IMG/VR virus record: IMGVR_UViG_3300035686_000003
Span: 64,001 to 128,000 of that record
DNA length: 64,000 bases
Reading direction: 5' to 3' (one strand)
Source of the DNA: a virus
Lineage: Duplodnaviria; Caudoviricetes
Below, in pieces: positions 2,436 through 63,978 of this stretch. Position numbers and translations under genes: made by a program. Under the pieces are notes generated by a model, which was not told the DNA's origin, made no database searches, and saw only the letters and a list, made by a program, of their open reading frames with translations. Numbering within the stretch: the first letter of the stretch is position 1; each line of letters starts with the position of its first letter.

Positions 2436-2790
2436 GGGGCGAAACTCTTCCAACACCACGATAGTTTTTGTGAAGACCGGATCAAATTGGACTAGTCTCC
2501 ATTTGTTATGACAAGATCAAATTGATCTAGTGACCGGATCAAATTGATCCACTCCTCTTATATATAAAGAGACTAAGAAAAGACTAACTATCTCGCAAGC
2601 GGGTTAGGTAGCTAGTTTTGAGGTCACAAGAGAGTATCGTAGAAGCAGAGATCTCGGTTGCTCACGCTAAGAATCGAAGACCCTCCAAGAACAAACCTTG
2701 TCGTACTCAATGAAATTCAAGATCAAGAACCCTCGCACGAAATACCGTTACAACTCCGGAGGAAGAGTTTCGCCCCTGCCATGCCGCAAA
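2436..2790. repeat. Non-coding origin-like element A (inverted copy of 63628-63978; homologous to the ori inside the initiator gene)
   Basis: GAC(C/A)(G/A)GATCAAATTG at 2475, 2510 and 2532; AT-rich TTATATATAAAG tract; flanked by a perfect 16-bp inverted repeat GGGGCGAAACTCTTCC (2436-2451) / GGAAGAGTTTCGCCCC (2761-2776). Confidence 0.9.
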
Positions 2791-2960
2791 AAAAGTCTTT
2801 AAGCCGCCCAAAACCAACCGAACGTCCAAAGACACTACTCTAACTCACAACAGCTGCTACAGCCGTCACCATTGACCGCTAAGGATAACTCTTGCGTACA
2901 ATCACATATTGTTGGACTACCAAAGCTTGCGACCATGAGGTAGTACTTTAGCCTTGTGTT

Positions 2961-3455
2961 ATGACCGTAGCTCCATCTAACCCCTCTGAAATCAAAGGTA
3001 GTGGAATCCTTGGTGGTGGTGGATGCTTCGTTGCGGACACCCTGATTTGGACTGAGGACGGAACCAAGCCGATCCGTGACATTCGTGAAGGCGATCGCGT
3101 CTTATGCTTCGACAGTCACCGAAAGCTGCACTTTAGCGAAGTAATTGCAACATCGTTCCATTGCAACTATGACGTGTGGCGCTATAGGTTCTGGGGTGGT
3201 GAGTTCATTGCGACTCCCAACCACTATGTTTATACCGAGCAGAATGCATTCCAAGAGATCGGGAAGCTTGAGAGAGACGCACCCCTCTACAACTCCTCTT
3301 GGCAAGTGCTACCTCTTGAGTCATCGGTTTACATTGGCAAGGCTAATGTTTACAACTTCTGGGTGGCAGGTTATCACACATACTTTGTTACAGAGTCAGC
3401 GATAGCCGTCCACAACGGCAAACACAAAAAAGGAGCTTATCTTTTGCAAGAATAA
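2961..3455 (+). CDS. Stand-alone Hint (intein/BIL-like) protein; duplicate of the N-terminus of tail protein J
   Basis: GSGILGGGG|CFVADTLI...ATPNH...VYNFWV..YHTYFV...VHN|G; Hint at 3024-3416; leader and domain parallel those at 4241-4705. Confidence 0.85.
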   Translation: MTVAPSNPSEIKGSGILGGGGCFVADTLIWTEDGTKPIRDIREGDRVLCFDSHRKLHFSEVIATSFHCNYDVWRYRFWGGEFIATPNHYVYTEQNAFQEIGKLERDAPLYNSSWQVLPLESSVYIGKANVYNFWVAGYHTYFVTESAIAVHNGKHKKGAYLLQE

Positions 3456-3472
3456 ACTCCCTTTAAAACCGA

Positions 3473-4207
3473 TTAGTAATCTTTGCCTTTGATTTGCCCT
3501 CCAATCTCTCTGTAAGCTTGCCCTTTGGTTATTCGTTCTATTGTCGATATTCCTAATTCATACTTTGACGCTATTTTTGCTAAAGAATCACCTACAAAAC
3601 GGAGGTTTCTTATGTCCAAAACGTCTGAAGGTTCAAGAAGACGTGTCGTTGTCGCCTTTTTGAGAAGTTCATAATCCTTTCCTTTAACAAGTCCACCTAT
3701 ATGCTTCTACTTGTTTCCAAGCACAATGTTGCCTACTATAGTGTGTCCAAGTCCATATTCTTTGGCTAAAGTCTCAAAAGATATGTTTTCGTAGGCATAC
3801 CTCGTTCTAATTTCAATTACAATGTTTTCGTTGATCTTAGCACTGCCTGTTCCTTTTCCTTTCGATTGCCGATCTGCTTCAACCTTATCAATGACGTTTT
3901 CTGCTTGAGAGCCTAAAACTAAATGCTGTGGGTTACAACACTGTGGGTTGTGGCACATATGCCTTACTATCTTTTCAGAAGGTATTTCTTGTTTGTTATA
4001 AACCTGCCACATCAATCGATGAAGTCGTACACATCGACCTATCCCCTTGAGGTCAACAACTCCGTACCCGTGGTTTCTGTGACCGTTCCAGTTCCAGCAT
4101 CCAGATGAAGAAACGCTAATGTTTGATTCTATTTTCACCTGCTGATCAGGAGTTAACTCAGTCGGCAATTTCATAAATTTTATATTCTTCATGACTCTTC
4201 CTCTCAT
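3473..4207 (-). pseudogene. HNH homing endonuclease with C-terminal HTH repeats, interrupted by an in-frame TAG at 3707-3709
   Basis: CWNW...HR...VRHMCHNPQCCNPQHL..GSQAEN; the frame continues past TAG for about 77 codons (KHIGGLVKGKDY...YREIGGQIKGKDY*) to TAA at 3473. Confidence 0.8.
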
Positions 4208-4240: not shown

Positions 4241-6976
4241 ATGTCAAATGTCGCTAACCATTACGACCCATACTCTCAAATCACTGGTTCTGGTCTACTG
4301 GGTGGCGGCTGTTTTGTTGGCGAAACTGTTGTTCTTACTCCAAGTGGACACAAGTTTTTAAAGGATCTTAGGGTTGGAGATAGCGTTTTTTCGTACAAGC
4401 CAACAGGAGAGTTGGTTAATGGAAAAATTGTCGAAACTCATTTCCATGAAAAATATTTAGTCAACGAATATGTTTTGTGGCAAACGCAATTTGTTGCCAC
4501 ACCTAATCATCACGTCTTAACAGAAAATAACGCCTACAAACAAATACAACACTTCAAAATTAACGAGTGTTTAGTTGATGCATTAGGCGAACTTCAGCCA
4601 CTTGTTGCAGTTGAGAACGTTTCGCAACCCCGTGATGTTTACAATCTTACGGTAGAGCCTTATCACAACTATTTAATTACTGAAAAAGGAATAAGAGTTT
4701 CCAATGGGGGAGGTGGAAAATCTTCTGGAGGTGGCAAAGCTGAGGATGACGCATACAAAAGCAATGCAACAGCTTACATCCTTGAACTCTTGTCAGCGGG
4801 AGTAGTCGAAGGTATCGTTGGTGGGCAGAAGGGAATCTTTCTCGACAAGACACCAATCCAGAACGAAGATGGAACGTTAAACTTTAAGAATTTTAAGTAC
4901 GACTTTCGACCTGGCACCCAATATCAGGAATTCATGCCAGGTTATGCCGATGAGATTTCATCAGAGAAGTCGGTAGACCAAGAAGTTAAGAAATCCCAGC
5001 CAGTAGCTCGAACAGTCATCTCCTCTCAGATTGATGGCATTCGAGTTCGCATCGCCCTGCAACAGCAGAAGTACGAAGAGAACGGTGATGTTGTTGGCAT
5101 GGAAATGAGGTACAGGATTTATCTCAAGCAAGGAGGTGGTGCATTCGAGTTACGTGTCGATAAAGAAAAGGAAGGTCGGTTCTCATCGCTCACAGAATTT
5201 GAGTACTACTTGCCCGTCAACAACATGGGCGGAACCATTGACCAGTTCACTGTGAGAGTGGAAAAGGTCACGGATGACGTTGAAGATGGAGACACAAAGA
5301 AGCAACAGGTACTGAAGTGGCAGTCGTACACAGAAGTTATTGAGACAAAGCTAAGGTATGCTCATTCAGCAATCATTGGTGAGCAGTTCAATCCCAAAGA
5401 CTTTTCCTCAATCCCTTCAAGGCAATATAAACTAGCTGGTATACTAGTCCAGATTCCCAGCAACACAGTAGTTGATCCTGTTGACAGAGGATTGAACTTT
5501 ACTTCAGCTATCTGGGATGGGACATTCTACACTCCTGCATTAGCTTGTGCTGACCCTGCTTGGATTGCCTACTACCTGCTCACTGACCCTATCAATGGAC
5601 TCGGTAGATACATCGATGCCCCCTCCATAGATCGGTGGAGCTTGTATCGTGCAAGTCACTACAACAATGAGAAAGTACCCAACGGTTTAGGGGGGCTAGA
5701 GCGACGATTTTCGTGCCATACGGTACTTCAGCAACGAGAGGATGCTTGGAAGGTTCTAGAGGCTGTTTTTTCATCGTTCAACTGTTCCCACTATTGGGCA
5801 GATGGCACAGTGTACTTTGTACAAGACAGACCTCTTGCTCCTGGTGAAGAATACAAGTGGCAGTTCACCCAAGCAGACGTTGAAGGTGGTCAGTTCAGCT
5901 ATAGCTACTCTGCACTACGATCACGTTCATCAGTCGCAATGGTTACTTGGAATGACCCTAGCGACTATTACAATCAAACCATTGAGCCTGTCGAAGATCC
6001 TGAAGGTCTAGCAAAGTACGGGTACAAGGAGATTGAATTTGCTGCGTTTGGGTGCATCTCCAGAGGTCAAGCGATTAGGAAAGGTCGATATGTCTTGTTC
6101 TCGAACAATCGAGAGACACAGACGGTCACGTTTTCTGCTCGCTCATGGGCAGCTTACGTTCGTCCTGGTGAGATTATCCAGATTGCTGATGCTCAACGGG
6201 CAGCTATCCGTTATGGAGGATTAGTCAAAGCTTCTACGCCAGAGACGGTAACCCTTGATGCGCCAATCCAGATTCTTTCAACGGGTTATCGCATCACTTG
6301 CATGACAGCAGCAGGAACATTGCAGACCAGAAACATTACGAATGCTCTTGGGTCAACTCCTTCTGTAGCTGTAGACAAAGTTTTTACCATACCTATTCTT
6401 CCTGAGTCAAACTGGGTTGTTGCTTTGCCTAGCATCTTGCCGCAACTGTTCCGAGTCATCTCAAACTCATCTGACCCAAACGATCCGACGAAGCACACAA
6501 TCACAGCGATACAGTACATCCCAGAGAAGTTCAACTTCATTGAAAATGGATGGGCAATTCCTGATCGTCCCATTCGACAAACTGTACCTGTCATTGTTGC
6601 TCAGCCGCGATCGCCTACTTTAGCTTCAACGACTGTCAATGGTTCACCTAACTTAATCGTTAGCTGGCTACAGGCAACCAATCTTATCGACTACATTGAT
6701 CCTTTCGTGGATTCCTATGAAGTTGAGTGGTCACGAGACGGTATTACTTGGAATGAATCTCGAATTGTCGTAGGTACGAGTACTATTTACAACAATATAG
6801 TTCCTGGTATCTACTATGCACGAGTACGTTCTATCGATATTCAAGGAAAGGTTTCTGGACACGTTTTCACAGCCCCACACACAGTTCAAGTGGTATTGAC
6901 GCCACCAACACCCATTACAACTGAAAGTCAAAACTTTAGCAACTCTGGTAACTCTAGTAACGTTTGGTTATTTTAA
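4241..6976 (+). CDS. Tail tip/host specificity protein (lambda gpJ-like) with N-terminal Hint domain and C-terminal Fn3-like domain
   Basis: LELLSAGVVEG, IFLDKTPI, FRPGTQ.Q, WDGTF, DPAWIAYYLLTD, ERRFSC, AFGCISRGQA.R.G motifs of J-type proteins. Confidence 0.9.
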   Translation: MSNVANHYDPYSQITGSGLLGGGCFVGETVVLTPSGHKFLKDLRVGDSVFSYKPTGELVNGKIVETHFHEKYLVNEYVLWQTQFVATPNHHVLTENNAYKQIQHFKINECLVDALGELQPLVAVENVSQPRDVYNLTVEPYHNYLITEKGIRVSNGGGGKSSGGGKAEDDAYKSNATAYILELLSAGVVEGIVGGQKGIFLDKTPIQNEDGTLNFKNFKYDFRPGTQYQEFMPGYADEISSEKSVDQEVKKSQPVARTVISSQIDGIRVRIALQQQKYEENGDVVGMEMRYRIYLKQGGGAFELRVDKEKEGRFSSLTEFEYYLPVNNMGGTIDQFTVRVEKVTDDVEDGDTKKQQVLKWQSYTEVIETKLRYAHSAIIGEQFNPKDFSSIPSRQYKLAGILVQIPSNTVVDPVDRGLNFTSAIWDGTFYTPALACADPAWIAYYLLTDPINGLGRYIDAPSIDRWSLYRASHYNNEKVPNGLGGLERRFSCHTVLQQREDAWKVLEAVFSSFNCSHYWADGTVYFVQDRPLAPGEEYKWQFTQADVEGGQFSYSYSALRSRSSVAMVTWNDPSDYYNQTIEPVEDPEGLAKYGYKEIEFAAFGCISRGQAIRKGRYVLFSNNRETQTVTFSARSWAAYVRPGEIIQIADAQRAAIRYGGLVKASTPETVTLDAPIQILSTGYRITCMTAAGTLQTRNITNALGSTPSVAVDKVFTIPILPESNWVVALPSILPQLFRVISNSSDPNDPTKHTITAIQYIPEKFNFIENGWAIPDRPIRQTVPVIVAQPRSPTLASTTVNGSPNLIVSWLQATNLIDYIDPFVDSYEVEWSRDGITWNESRIVVGTSTIYNNIVPGIYYARVRSIDIQGKVSGHVFTAPHTVQVVLTPPTPITTESQNFSNSGNSSNVWLF
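4310..4705 (+). other. Hint/BIL domain (132 aa) within tail protein J
   Basis: CFVGETVVLT...ATPNH...VYNLTVEPYHNYLI...VSN followed by Gly (no C/S/T at +1). Confidence 0.85.
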
Positions 6977-12712: not shown

Positions 12713-13321
12713 TTAGGCGGTAGGCGCAACCCAATGTAGCTCGGTAGTGTTTTCCTTCAGACCTTCATAGCGGTTCAGGGAGTACAGGTAGTCACTGAGA
12801 GCATTGAACTCGCGAGCTGTGATTTTGATTGAGTCATTGTACTCATCAACACATTCTCCGTAAAGTTTGTCGATCACAACCCAGAGCAAGTGTTCGACTT
12901 TGCGGGAACGCACCCGAACATAATCTAGTGCCAACGAGCGATTAGTCTCTGGTATCACAAAGTCTTTGGCGGGTGCAATTTGGTCAGCGATCGCCTGCAA
13001 CCGTTCCTCTAATGCGTCCACATGAGAACTTTGGCTAGCGAACTCGATGTTATTGAACTTGAAGTAGACAAGTGCCGAAAGGTTGTTGAGATTCAACTTG
13101 TAGTAGTTGAACAGTTCAATGTCTTCTGCTGCCAATGCCTGTCCATAGTTGAACAAATATGAGCTAAAGTCATTGCGAAGGAACTCGATCTCATTTTGGA
13201 GGTTGCACAGCTGGTGGCTTTTTCGGATTGTCCAACCAGAGATGAGGTTAGATGTGCCTTTGTCGCCTTTCGCTGTCCGTCCGTTAGGTTGTATTCGTGC
13301 CACGAGTTTATTTGCCTCCAA
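12713..13321 (-). CDS. PduO-type ATP:cob(I)alamin adenosyltransferase
   Basis: RTAKGDKGTS.L.SG, LDYVRVRSRKVE and FNALSDYLY.LNR match the PduO motifs TxxGDxGxT, RTxxRRAER and LNRLSDxLF; overlaps the end of nrdJ. Confidence 0.75.
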   Translation of the reverse strand: MEANKLVARIQPNGRTAKGDKGTSNLISGWTIRKSHQLCNLQNEIEFLRNDFSSYLFNYGQALAAEDIELFNYYKLNLNNLSALVYFKFNNIEFASQSSHVDALEERLQAIADQIAPAKDFVIPETNRSLALDYVRVRSRKVEHLLWVVIDKLYGECVDEYNDSIKITAREFNALSDYLYSLNRYEGLKENTTELHWVAPTA

Positions 13322-16094
13322 TCAAGCATTTGTCTGAATCACAGCCAGTGACACCCTGATCCTTGTTCCACCCACTATCATAACGCTCTAGCAAACTTTG
13401 GAAGTCTTCTGACTTCCTACGGTCTAACACTTGCTGCTGTAATGCGTCGTAGGTTTCCTTTGATATAGGTTCAAAGGGTAAGCGAGGATACGTTTGCTTG
13501 TCATCGAAACGAGCTAGCAATGCACAAGAGATGTAACCTTCATCGTCACGGATTGCATCATGGATAAGAGTGCCAAGTTCTTCGATTTCGTTCTCTCGTA
13601 GCTCAATAGTGCCGGAAGTATTATGCGTGACATAGTGCTTCTGTACCTGCATATAGAAGTCGAATTGGGCAGCAGCACTGAAGCGAGAAATGTCAATTTT
13701 GTCAGCACCAGGAAGATTTGCCCATGACACTTCAACGGGTATCTCTACCAACCACTCTTGCACTCGCGGATCAAATGGATCGTCCAACAGTTTTCCTTCG
13801 TTGTCCTTACATGACTGTGAGGGAACAACTGAATAACCATAGTCCATACAAGTCAATGCGACAGGATCGTGAGCAGTGAAAGTGATGCGACGAATGTATC
13901 GCTGTGCTTTTGGGGGATGCCACCCTGGAGAGGCTCCTGTCAAAAGGCTTTTGGTACCAGAGGGTTGTGTAGTTGTGTAACGATTGGGACGCTTAAGTCC
14001 ATGTTCGTCACAGTAGCTCCAAACGCTATCACGGGCAGCTTCCTTCCAGAGATTTAGGTAACGCTTCTCTAATTCAATGAACAGTGCAGCATCAGCTTCC
14101 AACCAAACAGAATCGTTGTCACCTAGACCTAGCTTTGTTGCCACTAGATCCAAGTTATCTGCTTCCTCTACTGATAAGCCTTCCCAGTTTCGTGATCTTC
14201 CTGTCTTCCACCAACGCAACCAGCCACTGCCAAAAGCTTTGACAAAAAAGTCGAACAATCCAGTGAAAGACACACCAACAATGGGATCTAGCTCTCGTGA
14301 CTTGCGGTATCGCTCATCAATGAACTCATGATGCAGTAGCGCTCCTACTGACAAACCTCCGGTAGCAAATGCGAGCTTTTGTTCTTCAATGTTCAAGGGA
14401 TCGAATTGATTGAGGTGGATCTCTGAGAGGTTGCAAAGTCCATCAGAAAACACAATTTCTCCACAATTTCCGATAAGCAAACCTGATGATAGAGCGAAGG
14501 CGTTAGTACCTTCTACCGTACAGCAGTAAACTTTGTCAGCTATATGAGAGTATTCAATAGAATGAACGGTTGCAGACTTAATGGCATCACCAAACAAACC
14601 TTGGTCATGTATTTGTAATTTGTCGCCAACATTTAAGTCTTTTAGTTGCTTTCTTTCTCCATTTTCAAGAATGAATGTGTGGTACGCAGTAGCTGTAACC
14701 ACATCGCAACAATCTAAATCAACATTGGTCATTAAAACATTAAGTTGAAGATTATAAACAGGCTGGTTCTCTCCTGTCACTCTAAAATTGTCAACTGTTC
14801 TCCAGTTTAAACCATCCCAAACTTCAACAGTTTTTCCAACCAAATCTTCAACATAAGCAAAAGGATTATCTTTAGTCAAAACCATTGTGCCAGCAGCAAG
14901 ACAAGGGTTTAAACCGTAGCGCTGCATTCGATGCTCAAGCTCGTCTGACCGCATACTTAAGTTACTGGTGCGGCTAATTAGGAAGCCTTCTGCTAGATCT
15001 CGATCATTCGGATATAGATACAAGAATTTTTTCTTATCCATCTCTGTCGCCAACAGGTCAGCATTAGCTCTCGCTACAGCTTCTCCCGCCCACTGAATCG
15101 CACCTTCGCCGCTATAGTATTGCGATCGCACTGCATCAACACACTCTTGCAACGATGGTTTGTAGTGGTAGACTCTCGTATGGTTCGACATCCTCAACGC
15201 ATCTCTTTCAGGGTCAATCTTCCAATTACCATCGGAATCCTGAATCCACAAGTTCTCCTTCAGGAGTCGTGCCGTTGAGTCGAATTGTCGCATTCCCGCA
15301 TAACGACGCACGTTACCTGCGACAATAGTCAGCGCTACCTCATCGAGTAACAGACATACTCCTTCAGCGTCCAACTGACGACCAACGTAACGATTGAGTA
15401 CTGCTACTACTCGCTCGTACATCCGGGATAACTGGATGGGGTTTGCTACTCCCCCGAAACCTTTGATTGGTGTTCCATCAGGTCTGACTGATGAGATGTC
15501 AACGTTGATGTTAATTTTGGAAGCTTTCAAGGGTTCAAAGGCTAACTGCAAAATTGTAGTCATTGAGTTGACCCACCCTTGACGAGAGTCGCCAACTACA
15601 ATGTCTACTTCAACATAGTCATGAAGATCTTCATATACCTCAACAGTAGTCTCCTCTAGCCGCACCAAATGCTTTCCTGGTGTCCCTACGACACGCACTT
15701 GCAAACTGTTGCGAACGGGAGGCAGCTTCGATATGTGACGGGATTCTAGTACACCACCTGTGCCGCAACCCATCATCCCAAGAGCCATCATTAGTCCGAA
15801 GCTCTCAATGTCATTGATATTAGTCGAGTTGCAGTTGTAGGCTGAGTAGTAGTTTTCTGGTTTTTTAATCCAATCTGTACCGCCCACCCACATCCACCGA
15901 CCTGATGGAAGGACTTTGATTTCCTTCATCATTGAGTGAACGATAGTCTTCTGTTCTTCAGTGAACTGCCCTAATTCAGCTAGTCCATTCGTAGTGCGAT
16001 CGCAAACCTCAGCATAACTTTCACGACCATTTGCTGTGCGACGGCTGTACGTGCGAAAGAAAGTTGGGCTACCTGTCGGAGATTTAAATTCCAT
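13308..16094 (-). CDS. nrdJ: Class II (AdoCbl-dependent) ribonucleotide reductase, with mini-intein
   Basis: FFRTYSR, PSGRWMW.GG, GNVRR.A, NP[intein]CGEI, CNLSEIHL, QPSGTKSLL, C-terminal GCDSDKC. Confidence 0.95.
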   Translation of the reverse strand: MEFKSPTGSPTFFRTYSRRTANGRESYAEVCDRTTNGLAELGQFTEEQKTIVHSMMKEIKVLPSGRWMWVGGTDWIKKPENYYSAYNCNSTNINDIESFGLMMALGMMGCGTGGVLESRHISKLPPVRNSLQVRVVGTPGKHLVRLEETTVEVYEDLHDYVEVDIVVGDSRQGWVNSMTTILQLAFEPLKASKININVDISSVRPDGTPIKGFGGVANPIQLSRMYERVVAVLNRYVGRQLDAEGVCLLLDEVALTIVAGNVRRYAGMRQFDSTARLLKENLWIQDSDGNWKIDPERDALRMSNHTRVYHYKPSLQECVDAVRSQYYSGEGAIQWAGEAVARANADLLATEMDKKKFLYLYPNDRDLAEGFLISRTSNLSMRSDELEHRMQRYGLNPCLAAGTMVLTKDNPFAYVEDLVGKTVEVWDGLNWRTVDNFRVTGENQPVYNLQLNVLMTNVDLDCCDVVTATAYHTFILENGERKQLKDLNVGDKLQIHDQGLFGDAIKSATVHSIEYSHIADKVYCCTVEGTNAFALSSGLLIGNCGEIVFSDGLCNLSEIHLNQFDPLNIEEQKLAFATGGLSVGALLHHEFIDERYRKSRELDPIVGVSFTGLFDFFVKAFGSGWLRWWKTGRSRNWEGLSVEEADNLDLVATKLGLGDNDSVWLEADAALFIELEKRYLNLWKEAARDSVWSYCDEHGLKRPNRYTTTQPSGTKSLLTGASPGWHPPKAQRYIRRITFTAHDPVALTCMDYGYSVVPSQSCKDNEGKLLDDPFDPRVQEWLVEIPVEVSWANLPGADKIDISRFSAAAQFDFYMQVQKHYVTHNTSGTIELRENEIEELGTLIHDAIRDDEGYISCALLARFDDKQTYPRLPFEPISKETYDALQQQVLDRRKSEDFQSLLERYDSGWNKDQGVTGCDSDKCLIGGK
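14466..14903 (-). mobile_element. Mini-intein (146 aa) at the NrdJ active-site NP|CGEI
   Basis: CLAAGTMV...TAYH.F...VYCCTVEGTNAF...IGN|C; no endonuclease domain. Confidence 0.9.
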
Positions 16095-17499: not shown

Positions 17500-19467
17500 T
17501 CACTCAAGCTGTTGTAGTGCCTTTGGATGTGCCAAATAGATGTTTCCCACTTGGAACAACTTGCCATCACCATGAACAATGTTTTCTAGCGCTCTGACAG
17601 AGTATAGCTCCCTATCCTCCTCATCTATTTCAATGAGTTCAACCTTAAGCTGGCAACCCTTCAACGGATTAAACAAATACGCCTGCCCAATCACAAAGCC
17701 ATTTGCAGGAGCCTCCTCTGAAGGAACATCAGCAACTTCTGGTTCTATAGTCGCTTCTGCTACTACAGGCGGCTCTACGACTTCAGGAACAACCGCTACG
17801 TCAATGAAGGATGGTAGGGGTAAATCGGAAATTACTGGTGAAAGTTTGTCCTCCTTGATCTCGACTAGCTCTAGATCTGGATGAGTGGGCAAAGGGGCGA
17901 GTTCTTCTTCAGGAGAGTCTCCCTCCTTGTCTTGATACTTTTCAAACCCATCCCAGCTTGCAGTCGTTTGCTCTGGAATTCGTTTGGCTGTACTAGCAGG
18001 ATCATCTGGGTAGCTATAGTTGCTAGCGCTAGCGAGAGGGTAAAGCCACCCACTTGACCAGTCGATTCCCATGCGAATCTGTGCGTTCCCACCTTCTCTG
18101 TTTTTGAGCCAGTTAAACTCAAGAACCTTGTAATCGTGAATTGTTTGTCGGTTGGCATAACCCTCCGACCACAATGCAATTATCTGATCTGCGTGTTTGG
18201 AAATACCGTTGCTATCAGCGAAGCAGAAGATGCCCTCCGGCTTTTTGCCGGATTTAACAACATCTGTCGAATATTGTGCGAACGAAAAGAGTGTCGCACC
18301 CATCCCCTTCGCAATGTGTCCCAACTGAGCTGTTGCCGATGAAATCACAGAAGACTTCATCTCGTTTGGGCAAAACTCTCCAAAATACTGCAAATAGTCT
18401 AGTACAATGCAACGGAATCCTGTAAATTGCTCTCCGTATCGCTCTCTGAACTCTGATTCAGCTTCAGCGATCGCCTGATGCACTCCCGCTACGGTTGGTT
18501 CCGTTGGCTGAATGATGTGCAAAGGCAAATCATACATTTTTTGCTCATAAACCTTCTCTAGCCTCTCAACATCTGCAAGGCTAAACACAGGATTTTTGCT
18601 GATTACTCCTGCCGATATCTTTAGCTCTGCACCCCAAATTTTGGCTTGACACTGCTCCTCTGTCATCTCCATCGAAACAAGCAAGGTAAAGTTCCCTGCT
18701 TCTGCCAGTTGCTTAGCTAATGCAACTGCTAGGGTGCTTTTGCCACCACTGGGAGGCGCACCAAATACCACGATTTCACCAGGGATAAAGCCCCCTGCCG
18801 CTTGGTTGAAGTCGTACCAATCAGCAGTCCGTACTGCATTGGTTTGGGCTTCTCCCATCGCAATTGCTTTGATTTGATCAAGCATTTTGCGACCAATATC
18901 CCGCACAGAACCACCCCGCTTCTTCTTCGGCATTCCCTTTTGCCGAAAATTTCGCAAAGTGCTTTCAGCTGCCATTAAGACATCGCTGGAGGTAACGGAA
19001 GGATCTAAAGCCAAACTGATGCTATTGGCAAGAATCTTAGCAAGTTCCCGCTTCTCGTATTTTGCAACAATTCTCTCTGCATAACCCGCTACATATTCAG
19101 GATCGTGGTAGCTAGATTCAAAGAGCTTCGAGAGTAGTGCTTTCGTGAACTCTCCCGTTTTCCCGCAATAATCATGCAGGTAGTTTTCAATGGTTCGTAT
19201 TTCAATGGGAAGTCTATATTTGTGGTAAGCATCACAAACACCCTTCCAAACATCCCGCAAGTCTGGAGATACAAAGTGTTCTGCTTTGAGGGTAGAAGCA
19301 ACCTTCAGAAAGGTCTGTTCTGGACTCGCTGAGCCGAAAATACAAGCCAAGACTCCGTATTCGTCCTCAATTGCCTCTGGCATCTTCCGACTTGCTAATT
19401 CCCGTAGCTGTGCTGCCTGTAAATCATGACCATGACCAAAACCTTTTCCTTTGCCTGCTAGAACCAT
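17500..19467 (-). CDS. dnaB: DnaB-like replicative helicase
   Basis: DnaB-like N-terminal domain, GAPPSGGKS, VSMEM, IVLDYLQ, AD.I..L, KNREG; directly downstream of the initiator. Confidence 0.85.
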   Translation of the reverse strand: MVLAGKGKGFGHGHDLQAAQLRELASRKMPEAIEDEYGVLACIFGSASPEQTFLKVASTLKAEHFVSPDLRDVWKGVCDAYHKYRLPIEIRTIENYLHDYCGKTGEFTKALLSKLFESSYHDPEYVAGYAERIVAKYEKRELAKILANSISLALDPSVTSSDVLMAAESTLRNFRQKGMPKKKRGGSVRDIGRKMLDQIKAIAMGEAQTNAVRTADWYDFNQAAGGFIPGEIVVFGAPPSGGKSTLAVALAKQLAEAGNFTLLVSMEMTEEQCQAKIWGAELKISAGVISKNPVFSLADVERLEKVYEQKMYDLPLHIIQPTEPTVAGVHQAIAEAESEFRERYGEQFTGFRCIVLDYLQYFGEFCPNEMKSSVISSATAQLGHIAKGMGATLFSFAQYSTDVVKSGKKPEGIFCFADSNGISKHADQIIALWSEGYANRQTIHDYKVLEFNWLKNREGGNAQIRMGIDWSSGWLYPLASASNYSYPDDPASTAKRIPEQTTASWDGFEKYQDKEGDSPEEELAPLPTHPDLELVEIKEDKLSPVISDLPLPSFIDVAVVPEVVEPPVVAEATIEPEVADVPSEEAPANGFVIGQAYLFNPLKGCQLKVELIEIDEEDRELYSVRALENIVHGDGKLFQVGNIYLAHPKALQQLE

Positions 19468-21690: not shown

Positions 21691-21757
21691 TCAGTGATCA
21701 ATGAACAGTGATCAGTAGTCAAGATTTGTTAACTGATCACTGTGTACTGATAACTGA
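21691..21757. repeat. Heptamer-periodic inverted repeat (CAGTGA(A/T) / ACTGAT(A/C)), STRR-like
   Basis: TCAGTGA TCAATGA ACAGTGA TCAGTAG ... ACTGATC ACTGTGT ACTGATA ACTGA. Confidence 0.75.
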
Positions 21758-28440: not shown

Positions 28441-28444
28441 GGCT

Positions 28445-42740: not shown

Positions 42741-42754
42741 TAGTTTTCTCCTGC

Positions 42755-42820
42755 TTACCTTAGTTGGCTATTGATGAACGATTGTGAACGGGCGATCACT
42801 TCCAAAGGATCTGTGGTGTC
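42755..42820 (-). pseudogene. Relic 3' end of a third 43202/44098-family gene
   Basis: DTTDPLEVIARSQSFINSQLR* versus DTIDPLVAIATAQAYINDQL (44098) and AITQAQSFIDSQL (43202); DNA near-repeat with 43190-43230. Confidence 0.6.
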
Positions 42821-43184
42821 AAGAGCTACTGGGTGTGCGTTCTGCTATTCGTTGTCCAATGTGAAAAACCGCTGCGTCGTCCCAACTTTCAATCGCATGA
42901 CAATCTCCATAACCAAGCTTCCATTCTAAGGTTTTATCAGTTCGAGCTTGAGCGGTTTCTAAATTGTAACGATAATGAAATTTGTCCCATAGACCATCTT
43001 CAAAACCATAGCTAATATCATCCTCATTTTCCAGAATCTCAAACTCTCCCGGATACACAAAATCATATCTATTAGGGAGATCGATTAGGTAGGCATCATT
43101 GAAAGGTCTAATGTCTCGGTGCTTACCTATGAGGTACTCTCTTCGAGACTCATTGTTTAAAATCTGTCTAACAATTACGTGCAT
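42819..43184 (-). CDS. Hypothetical protein
   Basis: ORF with GGAGG RBS. Confidence 0.5.
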   Translation of the reverse strand: MHVIVRQILNNESRREYLIGKHRDIRPFNDAYLIDLPNRYDFVYPGEFEILENEDDISYGFEDGLWDKFHYRYNLETAQARTDKTLEWKLGYGDCHAIESWDDAAVFHIGQRIAERTPSSS

Positions 43185-43201
43185 TAGCTTCCTCCTGCTT
43201 A

Positions 43202-50895: not shown

Positions 50896-53800
50896 ATGTT
50901 TGACAAACAAGGAAAATCATTGTTCGATGAATTAATCGAAATGACGGCTGCTGGGTTAGATAGTGAAAGTGACAATAACAAGATAAGAGACAAGTACATT
51001 GAAGAAGTTTTTGAATTTGGCGGAAAGAAATTCGTTGAACGAGTTAACAAGTATGGGTATACCGAAAAAGGCGACAAAGTAGTTCTAGATGACTGGTTTA
51101 AAGAATATCTGGAACTGATCGGTGATTATCGAATTCCTCATACCCTTACTACTGGTGCAGCTCAGTGTGGAAAAGCGCAACCTGTTTACTCCAAAGTTCT
51201 TACTCCTTCAGGTTGGACAACAATAGGTGAGCTAAGACCAGGCGATGATGTTATGTCAGCAGCTGGCACTCCTTGCAAGGTCATTAATATTTATCCACAG
51301 GGAATAAAAAAGGTTTTTTCAATTAAGTTTGATGATGGCACATCGACAGAATGCTGTGAAGAACACCTGTGGCTTACCCAGAACCAAAAAGAAAGGAGAC
51401 GATATCGAGAGCAGTCTTTTAGACTACAAGAAAAGCCTTTCTGCTCTGTAAAGACGCTTGCTGAAATCAAACAAACATTAAAATTTAAAAATCCCGAAAA
51501 AAAGACAGGGCAAACTCATGCAAACAATCATTGTATCCCATTGACAAAAGAAATACAGTTTGATTGTCAAGCTATACCTTTAGATCCGTATTTGTTGGGT
51601 GCAATGCTAGGAGATGGCAGCATGGCTCATCCTCAAAGAATTAGTTTCACGAATATGGACTTAGAAATAATTGACTTGGTAAGGCAAAAACTTCCAGCGG
51701 GGTGCATTCTCAAAAAGCAAGTCAATGGTGAATTCAGACGTGATGGGAAAAGAGCTGTAGAATATCGTATCAATCAAAGCAAAACTCTTGTTCATGCTTT
51801 TGAAAGTCTAAATTTACTAGGCACTCGAAGCAAAACAAAGTTCATTCCTGACTGCTACAAATACAATTTGCCAGAAATCAGACTAGAAGTTTTACGTGGG
51901 CTAATGGATACAGATGGTAGCATTTGCAACGTGAACAATATGCCAACTATTAGCACTACCTCTAGGCAAATGGCTGACGACATAAGAGAAATAGCTTTGT
52001 CATTAGGGGGATTAGCAATTGTCCATACCATGACTGCTCCTAGTCGGCAAAACGAAAACTGGAACACTGCTTATTCCGTTCGACTAACATTGCCTAACGG
52101 AATAAACCCATTCCGTTTAACCAGAAAAGCAGAAAGAGTTAAAGAGAGGAACTACTGGCGATTCAAAAGATTTGTGGTAGGTATAGAAGAAGCTGGCGAG
52201 CAAGAGTGTGCCTGTATTTTAATAGATCACCCAAGCCACCTCTATGTTACGAACGATTACATTGTAACTCACAATACATTGGGTCACAATCTTTTGCTAG
52301 CAGATACCATTATCAATGGCAAACTTAATTGTGGATATTTTTTCTCCTCTAGAGATTCTAGGGAGGTCAATACGCCAGAGCAACAACGCCCAACAATAGA
52401 AAGGTTTGCCGAAGAATACGAAAAAATAAACGGAGTCAAGATCAGGCAACGGTCTGATAGAAAGCTGTCTTCAAGATATCAGATTGATGGTGTGACAGCA
52501 ATCTTTTCGTATCTTTCAACTTCAAAGGCAAGCGATAGCAAGAGTTCGTTGGCAGCAGCTGGCGGAAGCGCTGTTTCTTTTACGGCACACGTTATGTTTG
52601 TAGAAGAAGCTGGACAGTCACCACCAGAGTCAACAGAAGTTGTTATGCCTCGCTTATCTGCCTCTAAGATACCGACTAAGCCTAGACGTGATCTAGGGAC
52701 GCCGGGAGGAGGAGGTGCTTCCATTGAAGTTTTGTTGCAAGATGTTCACAGAAATTTTTATCCTCATGCACAATGCAAACATTGTCGAAAAATATTTCCA
52801 CTTCATCCATTAGGTTGTTTGCTGAAACCAATCAAACGAAAAAACGACCTAGGGAAGGAAGTGACTAGTTATTTTTTGAGCAGTGGACGCCCTGCACTAT
52901 GGTTCTCCCATGATGCAGAACGACCAGTGGAAACAGCCTATATCGGTTGTCCTCATTGTGAAAAACCTATCGACAATGAAACAAGATATGCAGCTCGCTA
53001 TAGGTGTACGAAAACAGGGGTTTGGTTAAGAGATTTTCTTGATAGTTTGCCTGTAAATGATCCGGTAGCTTGTGCCGATCTGAACACTAGAGTTGGTATC
53101 CACATCTCTCCCCTAGTTCGCAAGACCAAGCAGAACCTTGCCGCCGATCTCATAGACAAAGGTTTAAGAGCATCTAGAACCGCAGACTATCACCAGCAAC
53201 AATTAGGAATTGCAAGTTCCACACAGATAGTTGGCATCTCCCTCGAAATGCTCCGGAAAGCACTTGCAGCACCTAAGCCTGATGGTTCGCCCCTGTTCAC
53301 TCTAGCTGGCTTAGACATGGGCAGGAGTCGCGACTTCCTCACGATCGCCCAAATCTATCTCCCTGAGAATTACCGCTTCCTAGATCAACAGGAAATCTCG
53401 AAGCAATCCATCAGGCGCATTGTCTTCAGCTCAGATGTTGAGCGATCGCAAATACCAGAGCTGCTAAAGCGGCATAAGGTCAACTATGGTATCTGTGATA
53501 ACGAACCTAGTAGGGACTCTTCAATGGAGTTGTGCAATGAAACGAAAGTGTTGCAGATGGCAGACCAGAAGGATACCTTGAAGGATGCTGTGAAGCTTGA
53601 CAAGGTTAAGGATGGTGGTGCGGAATATCCTTGCTGGTTTATCCGTAACAAGAAGTTCCAAGACTTAATCCTGGAGACATTTCTTGAAGTTGCTGAAGAC
53701 GGCTATCCGCTTTATCGACTTCCCGAAGCGTGGAACAAGCATCTCAGTTCAAAGTCCGACTTGTCGCCATTCAAGCATCTCACTAGTCCCACTCGTGACC

Positions 53801-53934
53801 CTGAGACTGAGAAGTGGAAGCGAGCTGCCGATGGGAACGACGACTTGTTCTATTCATTCCTTTTCCTCGAAGCTGCATTTTACATCAAGTGCCTTGAGTT
53901 AGGCAAGTATCCAGAGTGGATTGGTAAGGTTTAG
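50896..53934 (+). CDS. terL: Terminase large subunit (gpA-like) with intein
   Basis: GAAQCGK[intein]T Walker A, VMFVEE Walker B, LGTP, CxxC pairs, nuclease GLDMG and DGNDD. Confidence 0.85.
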   Translation: MFDKQGKSLFDELIEMTAAGLDSESDNNKIRDKYIEEVFEFGGKKFVERVNKYGYTEKGDKVVLDDWFKEYLELIGDYRIPHTLTTGAAQCGKAQPVYSKVLTPSGWTTIGELRPGDDVMSAAGTPCKVINIYPQGIKKVFSIKFDDGTSTECCEEHLWLTQNQKERRRYREQSFRLQEKPFCSVKTLAEIKQTLKFKNPEKKTGQTHANNHCIPLTKEIQFDCQAIPLDPYLLGAMLGDGSMAHPQRISFTNMDLEIIDLVRQKLPAGCILKKQVNGEFRRDGKRAVEYRINQSKTLVHAFESLNLLGTRSKTKFIPDCYKYNLPEIRLEVLRGLMDTDGSICNVNNMPTISTTSRQMADDIREIALSLGGLAIVHTMTAPSRQNENWNTAYSVRLTLPNGINPFRLTRKAERVKERNYWRFKRFVVGIEEAGEQECACILIDHPSHLYVTNDYIVTHNTLGHNLLLADTIINGKLNCGYFFSSRDSREVNTPEQQRPTIERFAEEYEKINGVKIRQRSDRKLSSRYQIDGVTAIFSYLSTSKASDSKSSLAAAGGSAVSFTAHVMFVEEAGQSPPESTEVVMPRLSASKIPTKPRRDLGTPGGGGASIEVLLQDVHRNFYPHAQCKHCRKIFPLHPLGCLLKPIKRKNDLGKEVTSYFLSSGRPALWFSHDAERPVETAYIGCPHCEKPIDNETRYAARYRCTKTGVWLRDFLDSLPVNDPVACADLNTRVGIHISPLVRKTKQNLAADLIDKGLRASRTADYHQQQLGIASSTQIVGISLEMLRKALAAPKPDGSPLFTLAGLDMGRSRDFLTIAQIYLPENYRFLDQQEISKQSIRRIVFSSDVERSQIPELLKRHKVNYGICDNEPSRDSSMELCNETKVLQMADQKDTLKDAVKLDKVKDGGAEYPCWFIRNKKFQDLILETFLEVAEDGYPLYRLPEAWNKHLSSKSDLSPFKHLTSPTRDPETEKWKRAADGNDDLFYSFLFLEAAFYIKCLELGKYPEWIGKV
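51175..52275 (+). mobile_element. Class 3 intein (367 aa) with LAGLIDADG endonuclease
   Basis: Ala1 (AQPV..KVLTP.G), block B EEHLW, block F ECACI, block G VTHN|T give the WCT triad; YLLGAMLGDG and LRGLMDTDG. Confidence 0.9.
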
Positions 53935-58900: not shown

Positions 58901-59130
58901 TAACTTTCGGAATGATTAAGGGGATGTACGAATATATAAAATCTCAGAAGGTAACTGGCGGTTTGATGGATGGTTCTTTCTCTGCTGGACAACCGGAGTT
59001 TACAGTAGATGGTGTCGTTTATCGCGAATATTTCGGCTTTTGGAACTATGAGATAGTCGAATCGCTCTCGCTACTGCATAAATACCGAGAGCAAATTCGA
59101 CTACCTAATTGTAGTAGCCCTTTATTCTGA
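55993..59130 (+). CDS. Tail protein: gpM-like N-terminus fused to a putative glycoside hydrolase (GH8-like) region
   Basis: LGDGYVQ, G.KPFAW.P, INATF.E in aa 1-110; ATTEGQ, AAID...W and aromatic-rich beta inserts. Confidence 0.7.
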   Translation: MPLPTLVLSPELTASKTLRFQTKETQLGDGYVQTCAVGKSDGLEEWSVRSDWLNDADIQILINQLKFLRGSKPFAWQPEGADRGRVYICELFEVVQQGQLQQINATFVEFLEGECEPYRGQLIAEDEILELLAANKGFIHRFTRNQKPFLVNTSFLLTNSFQETLGRGNYFTQLSATTEGQFVAIRASMYAYEQTGDTYWRDVAIAMANAAIFYLYPIQPFPPVNWQTLDENNIVVAHWLCNLDPVPSKAPVADDPLNNGYFNLVVNFVNGVGQIPHGAPTFGEKLSNVYRVIPMNEELLWQNVYAFPRYNPQSYYEIDYWVTDISLKGLIRRFYADAQQPGGRQPLPTNEPLGLVKLIVPYTGQLKVTFSTYTGAIIPVNGLYEPYPCWRLLRPKEALAAIDTLAWSWDAYRKLWENTGNEYWYRCMYYTALTEVRAAQIENSSAWYKKYDAQDPFRHPGSQIIITPENDSRTYVATRNYGGDKNLWLKVDLTASNKSFPTVEIQNFAVQPGINTDTVVQVEAACSQATTLEVVLSLSQNAFDFTKYYICRMPVPSGNVPTVANFTSREFVKFEPKTNVWNPFIADNPIYTYKGDDGEVTVTLVKSLIDGVARDVYAINLKARGDYAGAGFVTKGIAPDLGGAAPNFPLKLFYRFERVNDGGWLYLTVNGKKYGVYLEQTQDWAIQSLEPSDLVNDDDEAPPSDGKITNIEVECNGDDRAIFYVWWIGSAAEELPAYAQTYKAAIVSKVKTAHTLWCGNFEAIGAPSNALRYVPGVNLFTVNVENGAIDSWRGSCVMAGYQDPYHLVRTEQWERLGNQLQFLEDSQNAYQQANPDRINGLFYQGFLLQFWDAVDFVDNRGYNVFTENTIDPNSEWCQYFTRPLKSTAYAWYLLVEKGMGKTKYAKQAERIVMRFLGFLFTFHRNRNSNQPPTNIRVDNGAKVLYHEPSTAALTLAASIFANLAGGNSLITFGMIKGMYEYIKSQKVTGGLMDGSFSAGQPEFTVDGVVYREYFGFWNYEIVESLSLLHKYREQIRLPNCSSPLF

Positions 59131-59916
59131 CAACCCGTACCAACTTGTTATATGTAGCCAACGTCTACGCAAGCAGATATCGTTAATTAATGCTACAGAT
59201 ACACCAAGTTCAACACTCATTTCTTTGCAAGTTAAGTGTTCCTGATTGTCTAGAATCCATTTAACATCATCTTCTGTTAGCTTTGAAGCGTTATGCTTGC
59301 TCCCTTGTTGAAAATTCCCACTATTGATTTTGCAAACTTTCAAAACTTCGATTGAGTGTCTTGTGTTCTCTAAAGGAGTTACCCATTCTAGATTGCTTAC
59401 ATAATTGTTGGAAGGATTGCCGTCAATGTGATTGACTTGGTGTTGAGGTGTTGGCGGGTCAGAGATAAAAGCAGTCGCAACAAGTCTGTGAACTAAATAT
59501 CGCTTAGCTTTTGGCATACCTTTTATCCAAAAACATACTCCCTGATACCCTTTTTTGTTGCTGGGCTTTAGGATTTTGTTGTTCTTGATGCTTCTAACGT
59601 TTCCAAAGCTAGACACTTCGTACTCTCCTTCGTAACCCTTGATATCTCGCCATTCCTCTGAAGAAACACTGCTTCGTTCCAGTTGCTCAGCCAACCTTTC
59701 TTTTTGAGTTTGCGTGATTATTTTTTGACGATAAAGAGCTTCTTCGATATTCCATCTTTTTTTGCAACAAATGCAATTGCCAGCATGACCAGTATTATTC
59801 TTTCTTCTCAGACTTTTCCCAATCGTCCCCCATTCGTGTCCTTTTGGATCTTTGCGACACAATCCCCCTAACACGTAGTTTTGTTCGTCAAATCTCGGAC
59901 AGTTTACGTAAGTCAT
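59122..59916 (-). CDS. NUMOD4-HNH homing endonuclease
   Basis: EEWRDIKGYEG.YEVSSFGNVRS, VHRLVA.AF, VNHIDGN..NN..SNLEWVT..EN..H. Confidence 0.92.
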   Translation of the reverse strand: MTYVNCPRFDEQNYVLGGLCRKDPKGHEWGTIGKSLRRKNNTGHAGNCICCKKRWNIEEALYRQKIITQTQKERLAEQLERSSVSSEEWRDIKGYEGEYEVSSFGNVRSIKNNKILKPSNKKGYQGVCFWIKGMPKAKRYLVHRLVATAFISDPPTPQHQVNHIDGNPSNNYVSNLEWVTPLENTRHSIEVLKVCKINSGNFQQGSKHNASKLTEDDVKWILDNQEHLTCKEMSVELGVSVALINDICLRRRWLHITSWYGLSE

Positions 59917-60745: not shown

Positions 60746-61044
60746 ACATCATCTACATCTTGCAACGGTTGCCCCCTATAGTAGTCCTCTAGTGCGGCGA
60801 TCGCAACTGCTGCAACTTGAATCAACTCTACAGCGTAATTGTCACTGTCGCCTTCAAGGATGGCTCTGGCAACCTCACCTGTTTCCTCAGTTAATATCGC
60901 CAACCACAAGGAAGGCTTAAGATTCCGAGGCATTGCACCAAACTTTTTGTCTTGTCTTTCTCGTTCATCAATTACTTTCTTGATGACAAGTGCCCTGACT
61001 TGATTAGGGTCATTATAATTTATGGGGCTAGCAGGTTCAAGCAT
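60715..61044 (-). CDS. MazG-like family protein
   Basis: ERERQD.KFG, W.AIL.EE.GEVA, ELIQVAAVA. Confidence 0.75.
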   Translation of the reverse strand: MLEPASPINYNDPNQVRALVIKKVIDERERQDKKFGAMPRNLKPSLWLAILTEETGEVARAILEGDSDNYAVELIQVAAVAIAALEDYYRGQPLQDVDDVCPPIRYFGE

Positions 61045-63442
61045 TAGTTGTCGTTCTCCGTAATTGTTATAACAGAATTTAGATTGCCAATCATCTGATG
61101 TAGCTGGTGAAGATTGTTATTGCCACGAACTATTTCCGAGACGTAATAACTAACCTCATGATCTTCGTATCTTTCAATGATTTCGTCTTCATATTCTTGG
61201 TAGTAAAAGTCTACCTTTTGCATTGCTTCTAACAAAACGTTCCAGCCATCGAAGCAAGCATAATGTTCGGCACAGTAACGTAAATGTCTAACAGCCTTAA
61301 TAAATTCTTGCATCACTCTCCTCCCTCTTCCTTCAACGCCTCATGCAACTGTCGCCACATTTCTGTAGCTATAGCCTCGTCTGCTGGCTTTAGCACCCCA
61401 CACTTGATACTCCAAGATAAACATTGATAGAGGACTTCCCCTTGAGCATCACTGATAGCTTCCATGAAAGAAAGACAGCGGAAATTGTCTTCGTAATATT
61501 TCTTAGTTTTACTCACAGCTTATTGTACTCCTCGATTGCATTGCTAAATCCTTCAATGAACATAGAATCTCCAGTATTCTTGTTAACCACAACATAGTGG
61601 GCTACATCAGAATACGAAGGACTCACGACTACTTCCAACTGTTTACTATCGCAGCTAGCGAGAACTTTGATAGCACGACAGTCACGGAAATCTGACATCT
61701 TGACGGTGTGTTTCATAGCGTTAATCGAACCTCCGAAAAGAATAACGAGGCGGAAAAGGCATTGAGCGATCAAGATCAACAACGTAATTTACGTCAAATT
61801 CAGCTGCTAACACTACTAATGCATCAATGAAATCAGCATCAACGTGCTGGATTACCCTATCTCCTTTCATTGACACAGCACATAAATCTGGATACACCAC
61901 CTCAATATCCTCGATAACAATTGCATCGGGTTCATTGCGAGGCAAAATGAAATATTCTTCAAGACAGTTAAGCGCACTAACACCAATAGCAACCGCTAGT
62001 CCTACTGTTGGACAAATGCTACAAATAGCCAAGGTTCCAGCAGCAGTGATACAAGCGTAAGCCTTCTGTTCATGACTGCGACATTCGTACTCTTCCTGAG
62101 TTCTTAAACCTTTTTCGTACAACTTGTAATTGTATCCTCTGAGATCTACTATTTCATCTCTCAATGTCATCTTACTTCCTCCTTACAAAGCCCCGATTCT
62201 TTTTAAGTGTTGCTGATAAAACCATTCTATTTTGTCGTGATGTTCAAGCATATCAACATACGAACAATCTTCATCAATATAGTAACCGACCTTAAACTCA
62301 CTTTTGAGTTCTATTAAAGCGTCAACAAAATCACGATCTACATCTTCGATTAAGTCATCGTTCTTTGTTGCAATAATAAGCCATTGTGGGTAAACAACTC
62401 TGATATCTTCTATCGGAACACCCTGGACAATAGAAGGATCGTCCAATATTTCAGATATCGTATCTCTCAATGTCATCGTACTTCCTCAGTTACTTTTCTT
62501 ACTAATGTTGGCTGATGCACCCCTGAAAAATCAGTAGGGTTTCACAGCATGAATCATTGACATTGGAACTTCAATGAAATCACAACCATGACGACTGTAA
62601 CCTTCTACTTGAGGGTAGTGACTGAATGCTGCCTGCTTGCCAAAATATTTAGCTTGTTCCATTGATTCAGCCGTGTAGACGAGTATTCGACTAGCAAAAC
62701 CAACTTCGTGACTCGCCCAACAATAACCTGCGTACAACTTTAACATCTCAGATCCCTCCTACTTAAACTTCACTCTTAGTTGCGGCTTCAGCTCCGTATG
62801 GGAAGCCTCTAGCTCCTGTAGCTGCACTAATGCTGCCCTGCCCTTATCCGTATTGCTGAGGTAGGCAATCTTCTCCTCCAAAGCAGTTAGTTCCTCCGCA
62901 TTTCGTGCTTGGGCGATCGCAACCTCCTCCTTCACCACTTCCCTGAGTTCTAGTATCTCATCGGTTGGTACAACTGTAGGCACCATTGCCACAGAAGCAT
63001 AACCATCGTCACCAATCCAAACTTTTGTATCCTCCCGTTTACTCGACTTTCGCAACGCTAGAGCTTCTTTAGTAGCCCCAATTTGAAGGATGCGACACCA
63101 CCCCTGAAGTCCTTCGAGTTCCCTCTTGTGATGGATGTATTCCTCCAGTGGGCTTCGTTCTCTCATCGTAGTTTACCACGTTTCTAAGGTTTCTGCAAAT
63201 CGTTCTAACTCTTCTATTATACCGTTGAGCCTCGCAAGGGAAATCCTGCCGCTGACCAGCTCAGCAATGGTGGACTCTAGCTGAAGTCCGTACATTTGCT
63301 GTACTTCCATTTCTGAGAAGAAGCAATAGTAGGCTACACGAACTTGTGCGATCGCATCTTCGAGGTACGGTAGTCGGTCACGAGAGCAACAGGTAAGGGA
63401 ACGTTCCTTCAAAGTTCGTATGGCATTGATTAAAGTTTGCAT
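61044..63442 (-). CDS. Cluster of small hypothetical genes, including paralogs 61721-62170 and 62183-62476
   Basis: MTLRD.I, IEDI.VVYP, VD.DF.DAL shared; duplicated RBS/start DNA; tight packing. Confidence 0.55.
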
Positions 63443-63627
63443 GAGTAGATGTGGGATGAAGTTTAGTACACCAATCTACCACACAAAGGTTACTAGAATC
63501 TGGAAGCGCACCCACAAGTTCAACCATCTGTTCTTGTAGCGGCACCTAGCAGCTCCGTGAAGCCACACAAGTATCTTCGACAAGCAAATCATCATCTGAA
63601 CTTCCATCATCGGTTTTAGCGCGAAAA

Positions 63628-63978
63628 TTTGCGGCGTGGCAGGGGCGGAACTCTTGCTCCGGAGTTGTAACGGTATTTCGTGTGAGGATTGTTGATCTTG
63701 ATTTCGATGAACACGAGAATGTTTGTTCTTCCAGGGTCTTCGAGTCCCAGCGTGAGCAACCGAGATTCTTCCTTGCGCGACATCCTCTTGTAACCTCAAA
63801 ACCTGCTGTCCAACCCGCTTGCGAGATAGTTAGTCTTTTCTTAGTCTCTTTATATATAAGAGGAGTGGATCAATTTGATCCGGTCACTAGATCAATTTGA
63901 TCTTGTCATAACAAGTGGAGACTAGTCCAATTTGATCCGGTCTTCACAAAAACTCATCGTGGTGTTGCAAGAGTTTCG
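63628..63978. repeat. Non-coding origin-like element B (inverted copy of 2436-2790)
   Basis: CAATTTGATC(C/T)(G/T)GTC at 63871, 63893 and 63928; flanks GGGGCGGAACTCTTGC (63642) and GCAAGAGTTTCG (63967). Confidence 0.9.

Follow-up and report, generated by a model that had tools for sequence, protein, structure and literature searches.

Why should the replication origin that lies inside a phage initiator gene recur, as non-coding copies, at distant sites in the same genome? The question is raised by a 64,000-nt stretch of DNA (hereafter, the window) that forms bases 64001–128000 of the 147,706-bp virus record IMGVR_UViG_3300035686_000003 in IMG/VR, where two inverted elements some 61 kb apart resemble the interior of the gene for RepA, a 455-aa initiator (window 19560–20927, minus strand; identified by tblastn against phages and by PHROG matches). 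We find that the genome holds three such elements (C1–C3, termed cassettes here), each made up of a strongly conserved core of initiator-type repeats (iterons) and AT-rich sequence flanked by decaying pieces of the initiator gene, and we propose that they may serve as auxiliary origins. Coordinates are those of the window unless marked as genome coordinates.

The argument begins with RepA, which a preliminary description of the window had likened to the O protein of phage lambda. Several observations support RepA as a lambda-O-type initiator: its N-terminal 110–200 aa match O-like and replication initiation proteins of phages (tblastn, E 6e-16 to 4e-21), the protein matches phrog_6493 (E 4e-26) and phrog_11233 (E 2e-15), and directly downstream lies the gene for a DnaB-family replicative helicase (17500–19467, minus strand; Pfam DnaB_C, E 6e-23, plus a DnaB N-terminal domain). 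Searches of Pfam at E ≤ 0.01 and of PDB sequences returned no match to RepA. The protein is laid out as a lambda-O-like N-terminal DNA-binding domain, the part encoded by the in-gene origin, a linker, and a C-terminal domain common to a paralogue, RepB. The origin itself (20403–20545, plus strand) comprises four exact copies of a 14-bp iteron (at 20458, 20480, 20502 and 20532; approximately codons 127–156, directly after the DNA-binding domain) and, beyond the iterons and a TATATATA tract, three 12-mers with a period of 12 (20403–20438). In other metagenomes, a RepA homologue of 41% identity (P0002, on contig L016) has iterons, TATATA and three period-12 repeats at the same gene position, homologues of ~33% identity (on L023, L025 and L026) have in-gene iterons at the same place, and all four share with RepA the iteron core GATCAAATTGATC. 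By analogy with lambda O and SPP1 gp38, an in-gene origin in RepA is well supported. Adjoining it is a linker module (20172–20400, coding in RepA, minus strand; delimited by genome self-BLAST and a six-way alignment) that is common to RepB (83% DNA identity) and to a third paralogue, RepC; with its repeat motif at 20204–20219, this module is the source of both the diverged arm and the terminal repeat motif of the cassettes.

Matches to the iteron CAATTTGATCCGGT with up to two mismatches number 10 in the window against 0.39 expected by chance, and all 10 fall into three clusters: one inside the RepA gene (20458/20480/20502/20532) and two outside it (2476/2511/2533 and 63871/63893/63928). A whole-genome search found the exact iteron nowhere in the remaining 148-kb genome outside the RepA origin and the three cassettes. 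Where the preliminary description counted two ectopic copies, both are real, yet the genome holds three: C1 (genome 28214–28597) lies outside the window and was recovered by the genome-wide search, at 28229–28580 and 92% identical to C2. C2, the former copy A (2402–2791, plus strand, in the sense as in RepA; three-way and six-way alignments), fills the gap between a 4745-aa tape-measure gene and a Hint-domain open reading frame (ORF), and C3, the former copy B (63614 to ~64016, i.e., ~16 nt beyond the window end, minus strand; placed by repeats, iterons and alignments), sits in a divergent intergenic region. The inverted relationship of these two held up under both repeat search and BLAST at 88–91% identity or complementarity (2463–2716 against 63701–63954 at 89% and 2714–2790 against 63628–63704 at 91% complementarity; BLAST, 88% identity over 368 nt), and so did the alignment of both with 20204–20546 inside the RepA gene. 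Relative to neighbouring transcription, all three cassettes are oriented as is the origin inside RepA (n = 3, not significant).

Separate from the cassettes, a 67-nt sequence occurs upstream of RepA (21691–21757) and, at 92.5% identity, ~400 nt from C3 (genome 128423–128489, just beyond the window end); it folds into a long, perfectly paired hairpin (CAGTGATCAGT...ACTGATCACTG) with an energy of roughly -28 to -36 kcal/mol.

Read in the RepA sense, each cassette consists of an inverted duplicate of the linker end (~50–75 nt), the core, and a linker-homologous arm (~190 nt). In C2, the left piece (2402–2450, plus strand) repeats the RepA/RepB linker end in inverted orientation, antisense to the GRVSPP codons, and belongs with 20172–20230 to a direct-repeat family (D3); from 2436 to 2462 (27 nt, running into the core) it exactly equals the RepB version. 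The C2 core (2451–2605, plus strand) carries iterons at 2476–2489, 2511–2524 (variant) and 2533–2546, the TATATATA tract, and two 12-mers of the AGAGACTAA type, of which every cassette has two; the most AT-rich 40-nt stretch of C2 (2559–2598) coincides with this tract and the 12-mers. The C3 core (63812–63967, minus strand) has its iterons at 63871, 63893 (variant) and 63928. The three iterons per copy that were first described, two of them 22 bp apart, are more precisely two exact iterons and one two-mismatch variant that still holds the palindrome, the variant and a neighbouring exact iteron forming the 22-bp pair (2511/2533 in C2, 63871/63893 in C3). The right arm of C2 (2606–2791, plus strand) is a decayed relic of the initiator linker coding region and, like the linker arms generally, terminates in what is the GRVSPP-coding motif of the genes. 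Between them, the inverted duplicate and the linker end supply 16-bp terminal inverted repeats (GGGGCGAAACTCTTCC and its complement; 2436–2451 and 2761–2776 in C2), perfect in C2 but degenerate in the other two copies.

The cassettes do not encode an initiator. The Rep frame, already noted as not preserved, is disrupted in all three copies by frameshifts and stops. RepA-like peptide traces (QEQT.SYS, GRVSP) survive in the linker arms but are scattered over different frames, with stops in between, and a 107-aa ORF at 63476–63799 uses a frame other than that of Rep and has no counterpart in the other copies. Promoter-like sites, terminator-like sites, Rfam families and ORFs common to the copies were looked for in the cassettes and none was found. 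The six-way alignment shows the cassettes to be mosaic (5′ piece RepA/RepB-like, iterons and middle RepA-like, 3′ end RepC-like), and recombination must therefore have taken place within the initiator family. Because all copies share their boundaries and the inverted end piece, C1–C3 appear to descend from one already-truncated element copied twice; an origin as three separately truncated paralogue genes was rejected on the same grounds.

What these relics have kept is sharply delimited. Among C1–C3, 2 of 156 columns vary in the core as against 80 of 235 elsewhere (Fisher p = 2.7e-18), a pattern far from the uniform neutral divergence that had been named as evidence against function. Pairwise identity is 98.7–99.4% in the core, 76–81% in the linker arm and 63–78% in the 5′ inverted piece, and both boundaries of the core are sharp in the alignment. 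The uneven conservation reported earlier is thus more pronounced than was claimed, with C2 2451–2605 and C3 63812–63967 being 98.7% identical and the remainder of the two copies 65–81%. Between the cassettes and the RepA origin, 40 of 42 iteron positions are identical, compared with 57% of the other aligned columns (p = 1.5e-7), and the cassette sites have therefore tracked the specificity of the initiator; binding sites and unwinding region were kept while the rest drifted like a pseudogene. These patterns agree with the earlier suggestion of functional Rep-binding sites, and we regard the cassettes as probably being functional RepA-binding origin cores under selection.

For what such cores would do, the reading that we favour, with roughly even confidence, is that they are non-coding origin cassettes acting as auxiliary RepA origins. 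A piece of the initiator gene, comprising the iterons, the AT-rich unwinding element, the linker and an inverted linker-end duplicate, would have formed once and then been copied to three intergenic sites of the ~147.6-kb circular genome. RepA, as a lambda-O-type replisome organiser, would bind the 14-bp iterons at four loci, namely each of the three cassettes and the origin within its own gene. Melting of the neighbouring TATATATA and 12-mer tract by RepA, and its recruitment of DnaB, would then make the phage chromosome multi-origin. Auxiliary initiation seems the most likely role, since it is the complete origin architecture, rather than just the iterons, that every cassette has retained. 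While the anatomy of the cassettes, their conservation pattern and the homology of RepA can be read directly from the DNA, it is from these that we infer RepA binding, melting and origin firing; recruitment of the helicase by RepA is suggested by one feature, the adjacency of its gene to that for DnaB.

Several observations weigh against auxiliary origins. GC and AT skew, whether raw or strand-corrected at third codon positions, show no inflection at any copy—a check that the preliminary description had proposed—although skew in this genome is transcription-dominated and uninformative. No related phage with cassettes was found among the IMG/VR pattern searches and the contigs compared. Specifically, RepA peptide patterns had no match in IMG/VR; a 17-mer and an iteron-pair pattern recovered unrelated contigs only, each with a single cluster; none of 32 other contigs with the same iteron pair, most of them short, showed a second distant cluster; viral contigs G002–G004, examined as whole records, hold the iteron core in one cluster only; and in G001, the only phage with the Pol III alpha gene in common (49% identity), neither RepA nor a comparable dispersed repeat is present. 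The multiplied origin seems particular to this phage. Furthermore, the cassettes have three iterons and two 12-mers versus four and three in the gene, and could be weaker or binding-only sites. Finally, the spacers inside the core are nearly invariant, beyond the usual need of iteron origins, which suggests that gene conversion between copies contributes to core invariance, though by itself conversion leaves unexplained both the sharp boundaries shared by the copies and their match to the RepA iterons.

The alternative that survives best takes the cassettes as sites that RepA binds but does not fire from, either arresting forks and switching replication from the theta mode to a recombination-dependent or rolling-circle mode, or titrating or pairing RepA so as to limit initiation, in the manner of the control iterons of P1 incA and F incC. 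We consider this possible, if tentative. It accommodates the same conservation of core over flanks and the same iteron match to RepA, as well as the lower number of iterons and 12-mers than in the in-gene origin, and it has a counterpart in SPP1 oriR, for which a roadblock is proposed when gp38 is bound (PMC6316719; PMC3485210). However, a pure binding site needs neither the AT-rich tract nor the 12-mers nor the ~25 nt upstream of the first iteron, all of which are preserved. Nor does the phage give clear plasmid-like signs that would call for copy control: searches for tyrosine recombinases (Phage_integrase), serine recombinases (Resolvase) and ParA-type ATPases (AAA_31), to which families the searches were confined, gave no match among its proteins, and the sole partition-type match is a ParB_N-domain protein (genome 131821–132498). 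With the AT-rich unwinding part retained in addition, titration or handcuffing sites of a phage-plasmid, one of the two roles first suggested, find little to recommend them. The further suggestion that the inverted pair could flip the intervening 61-kb segment fared no better, since no recombinase was found and an independent contig of 99.6 kb runs collinearly across copy A. Site-specific inversion was accordingly rejected; homologous recombination between the copies is possible.

It is unlikely, in our view, that the cassettes are non-functional relics of the initiator gene whose cores have been kept alike by repeated gene conversion without selection. The invariance of the inter-iteron spacers would follow naturally from such a process, and the family is evidently recombinogenic, as the mosaic cassettes and the linkers of RepB and RepC (92% DNA identity over 173 nt, versus 34% for the proteins) attest. 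Yet in three of three copies the conversion tracts would have had to end at an identical pair of sharp boundaries, exactly around the origin parts, and conversion among cassettes leaves their iteron identity with RepA unexplained. The divergence of the flanks, moreover, indicates a long elapsed time, over which unselected iterons should have decayed.

Considerably more doubtful is a selfish element resembling a miniature inverted-repeat transposable element (MITE) or foldback element, carrying origin sequence by chance and spread by transposition. The cassettes do resemble such elements in being short (~390–420 bp), non-coding and dispersed in three intergenic copies with 16-bp terminal inverted repeats, and in C3 both repeats have changed together (TTCC/GGAA to TTGC/GCAA). 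But the repeats are of coding origin, corresponding to the GRVSPP motif of the initiator linker and its inverted duplicate, and, as noted, they are intact only in C2; no target-site duplication is evident at the cassette boundaries; among the phage proteins there is no match to DDE (DDE_Tnp_1), rve or TnpB-type transposases, nor to an integrase or resolvase; no cassette-like sequence was found in the other contigs with this iteron pair; and divergence is strongly non-uniform, unlike that of a neutral MITE.

The copies are real, being seen in independent assemblies with unique flanks. NCBI contig JAXMNB010549154.1 (99.6 kb, corresponding to genome 28396–127952) reads through the whole of C2 at 100% identity and has its ends within the C1 and C3 cores, which are identical; JAXMNB010550697.1 (genome ~127814 to ~1686, by coordinate arithmetic) starts in the C3 core; and Logan contigs of SRR11830169 break inside the C1 and C2 cores. 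The joins across C1 and C3 are given by the IMG/VR assembly alone, that at C1 being supported by a promoter-like 13-mer array that continues on either side of it. A collapsed or duplicated repeat, to which contig ends within cores and single-assembly joins might point, is therefore most improbable given that the diverged arms are distinct in every copy and lead into unique genes, that C2 is read through in full and that the array is present on both sides of C1. The cores of C1 and C3 are direct repeats, and recombination between them would divide the genome into two circles (~99.5 kb and ~48 kb) that each contain an initiator gene.

A broader version of the multi-origin reading draws in the two paralogues, both outside the window. 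RepB (439 aa; genome 146693–147706 continuing at 98–403, minus strand; L071:1284–2603) spans the junction of the record ends and is ordered as a winged-helix-like N-terminal domain, 21-bp repeats, an AT-rich stretch, the shared linker and the C-terminal domain. Its repeats are exact 21-mers (AATAGGCGGCAACTCATTTCC, giving LPPIGNE repeats in translation) that number four to five, depending on which record end is read, and its C-terminal two thirds match RepA aa 182–451 (E 3e-29, 32% identity). RepC (358 aa; genome 38073–39149, plus strand; L053:2074–3150) is 34% identical to RepB and has, just after its DNA-binding domain, four GCACAAC-type units with a 21-bp period, followed by an AT-rich stretch and the linker module; in a different contig, a RepC homologue with 21-bp repeats in the corresponding position sits beside genes for single-stranded DNA-binding proteins. 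The N-terminal domain of RepB and RepC differs from that of RepA and is modelled by AlphaFold as a winged helix (predicted local distance difference test score 77, from only 4 sequences); Foldseek gave no significant match for this domain, and VIA-align gave ORC/Cdc6, plasmid Rep and Pi winged-helix domains (Z 4.8–7.3), a generic winged-helix signal. No ectopic copies of the RepB or RepC repeats were found. Directly upstream of RepC, a 170-aa chimera (genome 37484–37996, plus strand; L053:1485–1997) joins 93 N-terminal residues that are 50% identical to the RepB DNA-binding domain (E 1e-25) to an HNH nuclease, a design shared with Odn, the origin-directed nuclease of phage ICP1 (PMC8263062). 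It is conceivable, and we advance it only as a tentative possibility, that these parts together make a multi-origin, multi-initiator chromosome in which RepA fires from four dispersed origins in the manner of baculovirus homologous regions (hrs), RepB and RepC are initiators with swapped DNA-binding domains and in-gene iterons of their own, and the Odn-type HNH chimera stands beside them, the redundancy of origins and the swapping of modules having arisen from an arms race over replication origins.

The genome that houses this family is circular or circularly permuted at ~147.6 kb, since the record ends overlap (bases 4–97 equal 147613–147706) and an NCBI contig also reads across the junction. 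PHROG and Pfam matches identify a tailed phage with a major head protein, portal, major tail protein, endolysin, the tape-measure protein mentioned above, a J-like tip protein and a terminase; its replication and nucleotide genes include, besides DnaB, Pol III alpha, a class II ribonucleotide reductase and ThyX. The load of selfish elements is high (2961–3455, 3707–4207, 4241–6976, 13308–16094, 50896–53934 and 59122–59916), among them a free-standing Hint ORF, a Hint domain N-terminal on the J-like tail protein, HNH endonucleases, an intein signal in the ribonucleotide reductase and a LAGLIDADG insert in the large terminase. Two other repeats occur. One of 385 nt (80% identity; genome 2512–2888 and window 30122–30486, inverted) is unrelated to the origin cassettes and probably reflects paralogous small genes; the other, a 68-nt direct repeat (78% identity; 42738–42805 and 43182–43249), is found where two neighbouring minus-strand genes begin and may represent duplication of a leader or regulatory region.

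The replication origin of a phage is usually regarded as a single site. If the cassettes are auxiliary origins, large phage chromosomes can multiply one origin, here as three extra complete cores under constraint. The conserved core set against a decaying pseudogene arm would then be a natural experiment that marks the bases needed by an O-type origin, and three initiator paralogues with an origin-domain nuclease would offer a compact system in which to study origin modularity, redundancy and conflict.

Among known systems, lambda resembles this one in its initiator: the N-terminal domain of RepA is homologous to O-like proteins, and in both the iterons and AT-rich tract lie within the gene after the DNA-binding domain. 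Lambda, however, has a single origin, and here DnaB is phage-encoded, no P-like loader was identified among the phage genes and Pfam models miss RepA. In P4 (ori/crr), P1 (incA) and F (incC), a second distant cluster of initiator-binding repeats acts with the origin; these clusters are known as repeats only and are not known to include an unwinding element, whereas the cassettes keep theirs and no partition or plasmid-maintenance module was found in this phage. Baculovirus hrs and herpesvirus oriS/oriLyt are dispersed repeated origin elements of large double-stranded DNA genomes, some of them inverted, but they belong to eukaryotic viruses with unrelated proteins and sequences, and the likeness is functional only. 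The preliminary description had named lambda O, P1 incA and F incC as precedents; the closest, which it did not mention, is SPP1. To our knowledge, no documented ectopic copy of the in-gene origin of an initiator comes closer than SPP1 oriR, and oriL/oriR with gp38 (G38P) is the closest known arrangement. In SPP1, oriL lies inside gene 38 and the intergenic oriR has the same organisation, both being bound by gp38, and it is proposed that initiator bound at oriR halts forks and so brings about the change to concatemer synthesis (PMC6316719). Both phages have an origin inside the initiator gene, followed by helicase genes, both have an ectopic intergenic copy that combines direct repeats with an AT-rich unwinding element, and oriR lies among late virion genes much as C2 lies inside the tail operon. 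RepA and gp38 are nevertheless alike in functional class only (BLASTP E 0.24; different PHROGs, none shared at thresholds), and the phage described here differs in having three ectopic copies versus one, in a 148-kb versus a 44-kb genome, and cassettes that visibly come from a gene fragment, with the pseudogene arm and the inverted end duplicate still attached.

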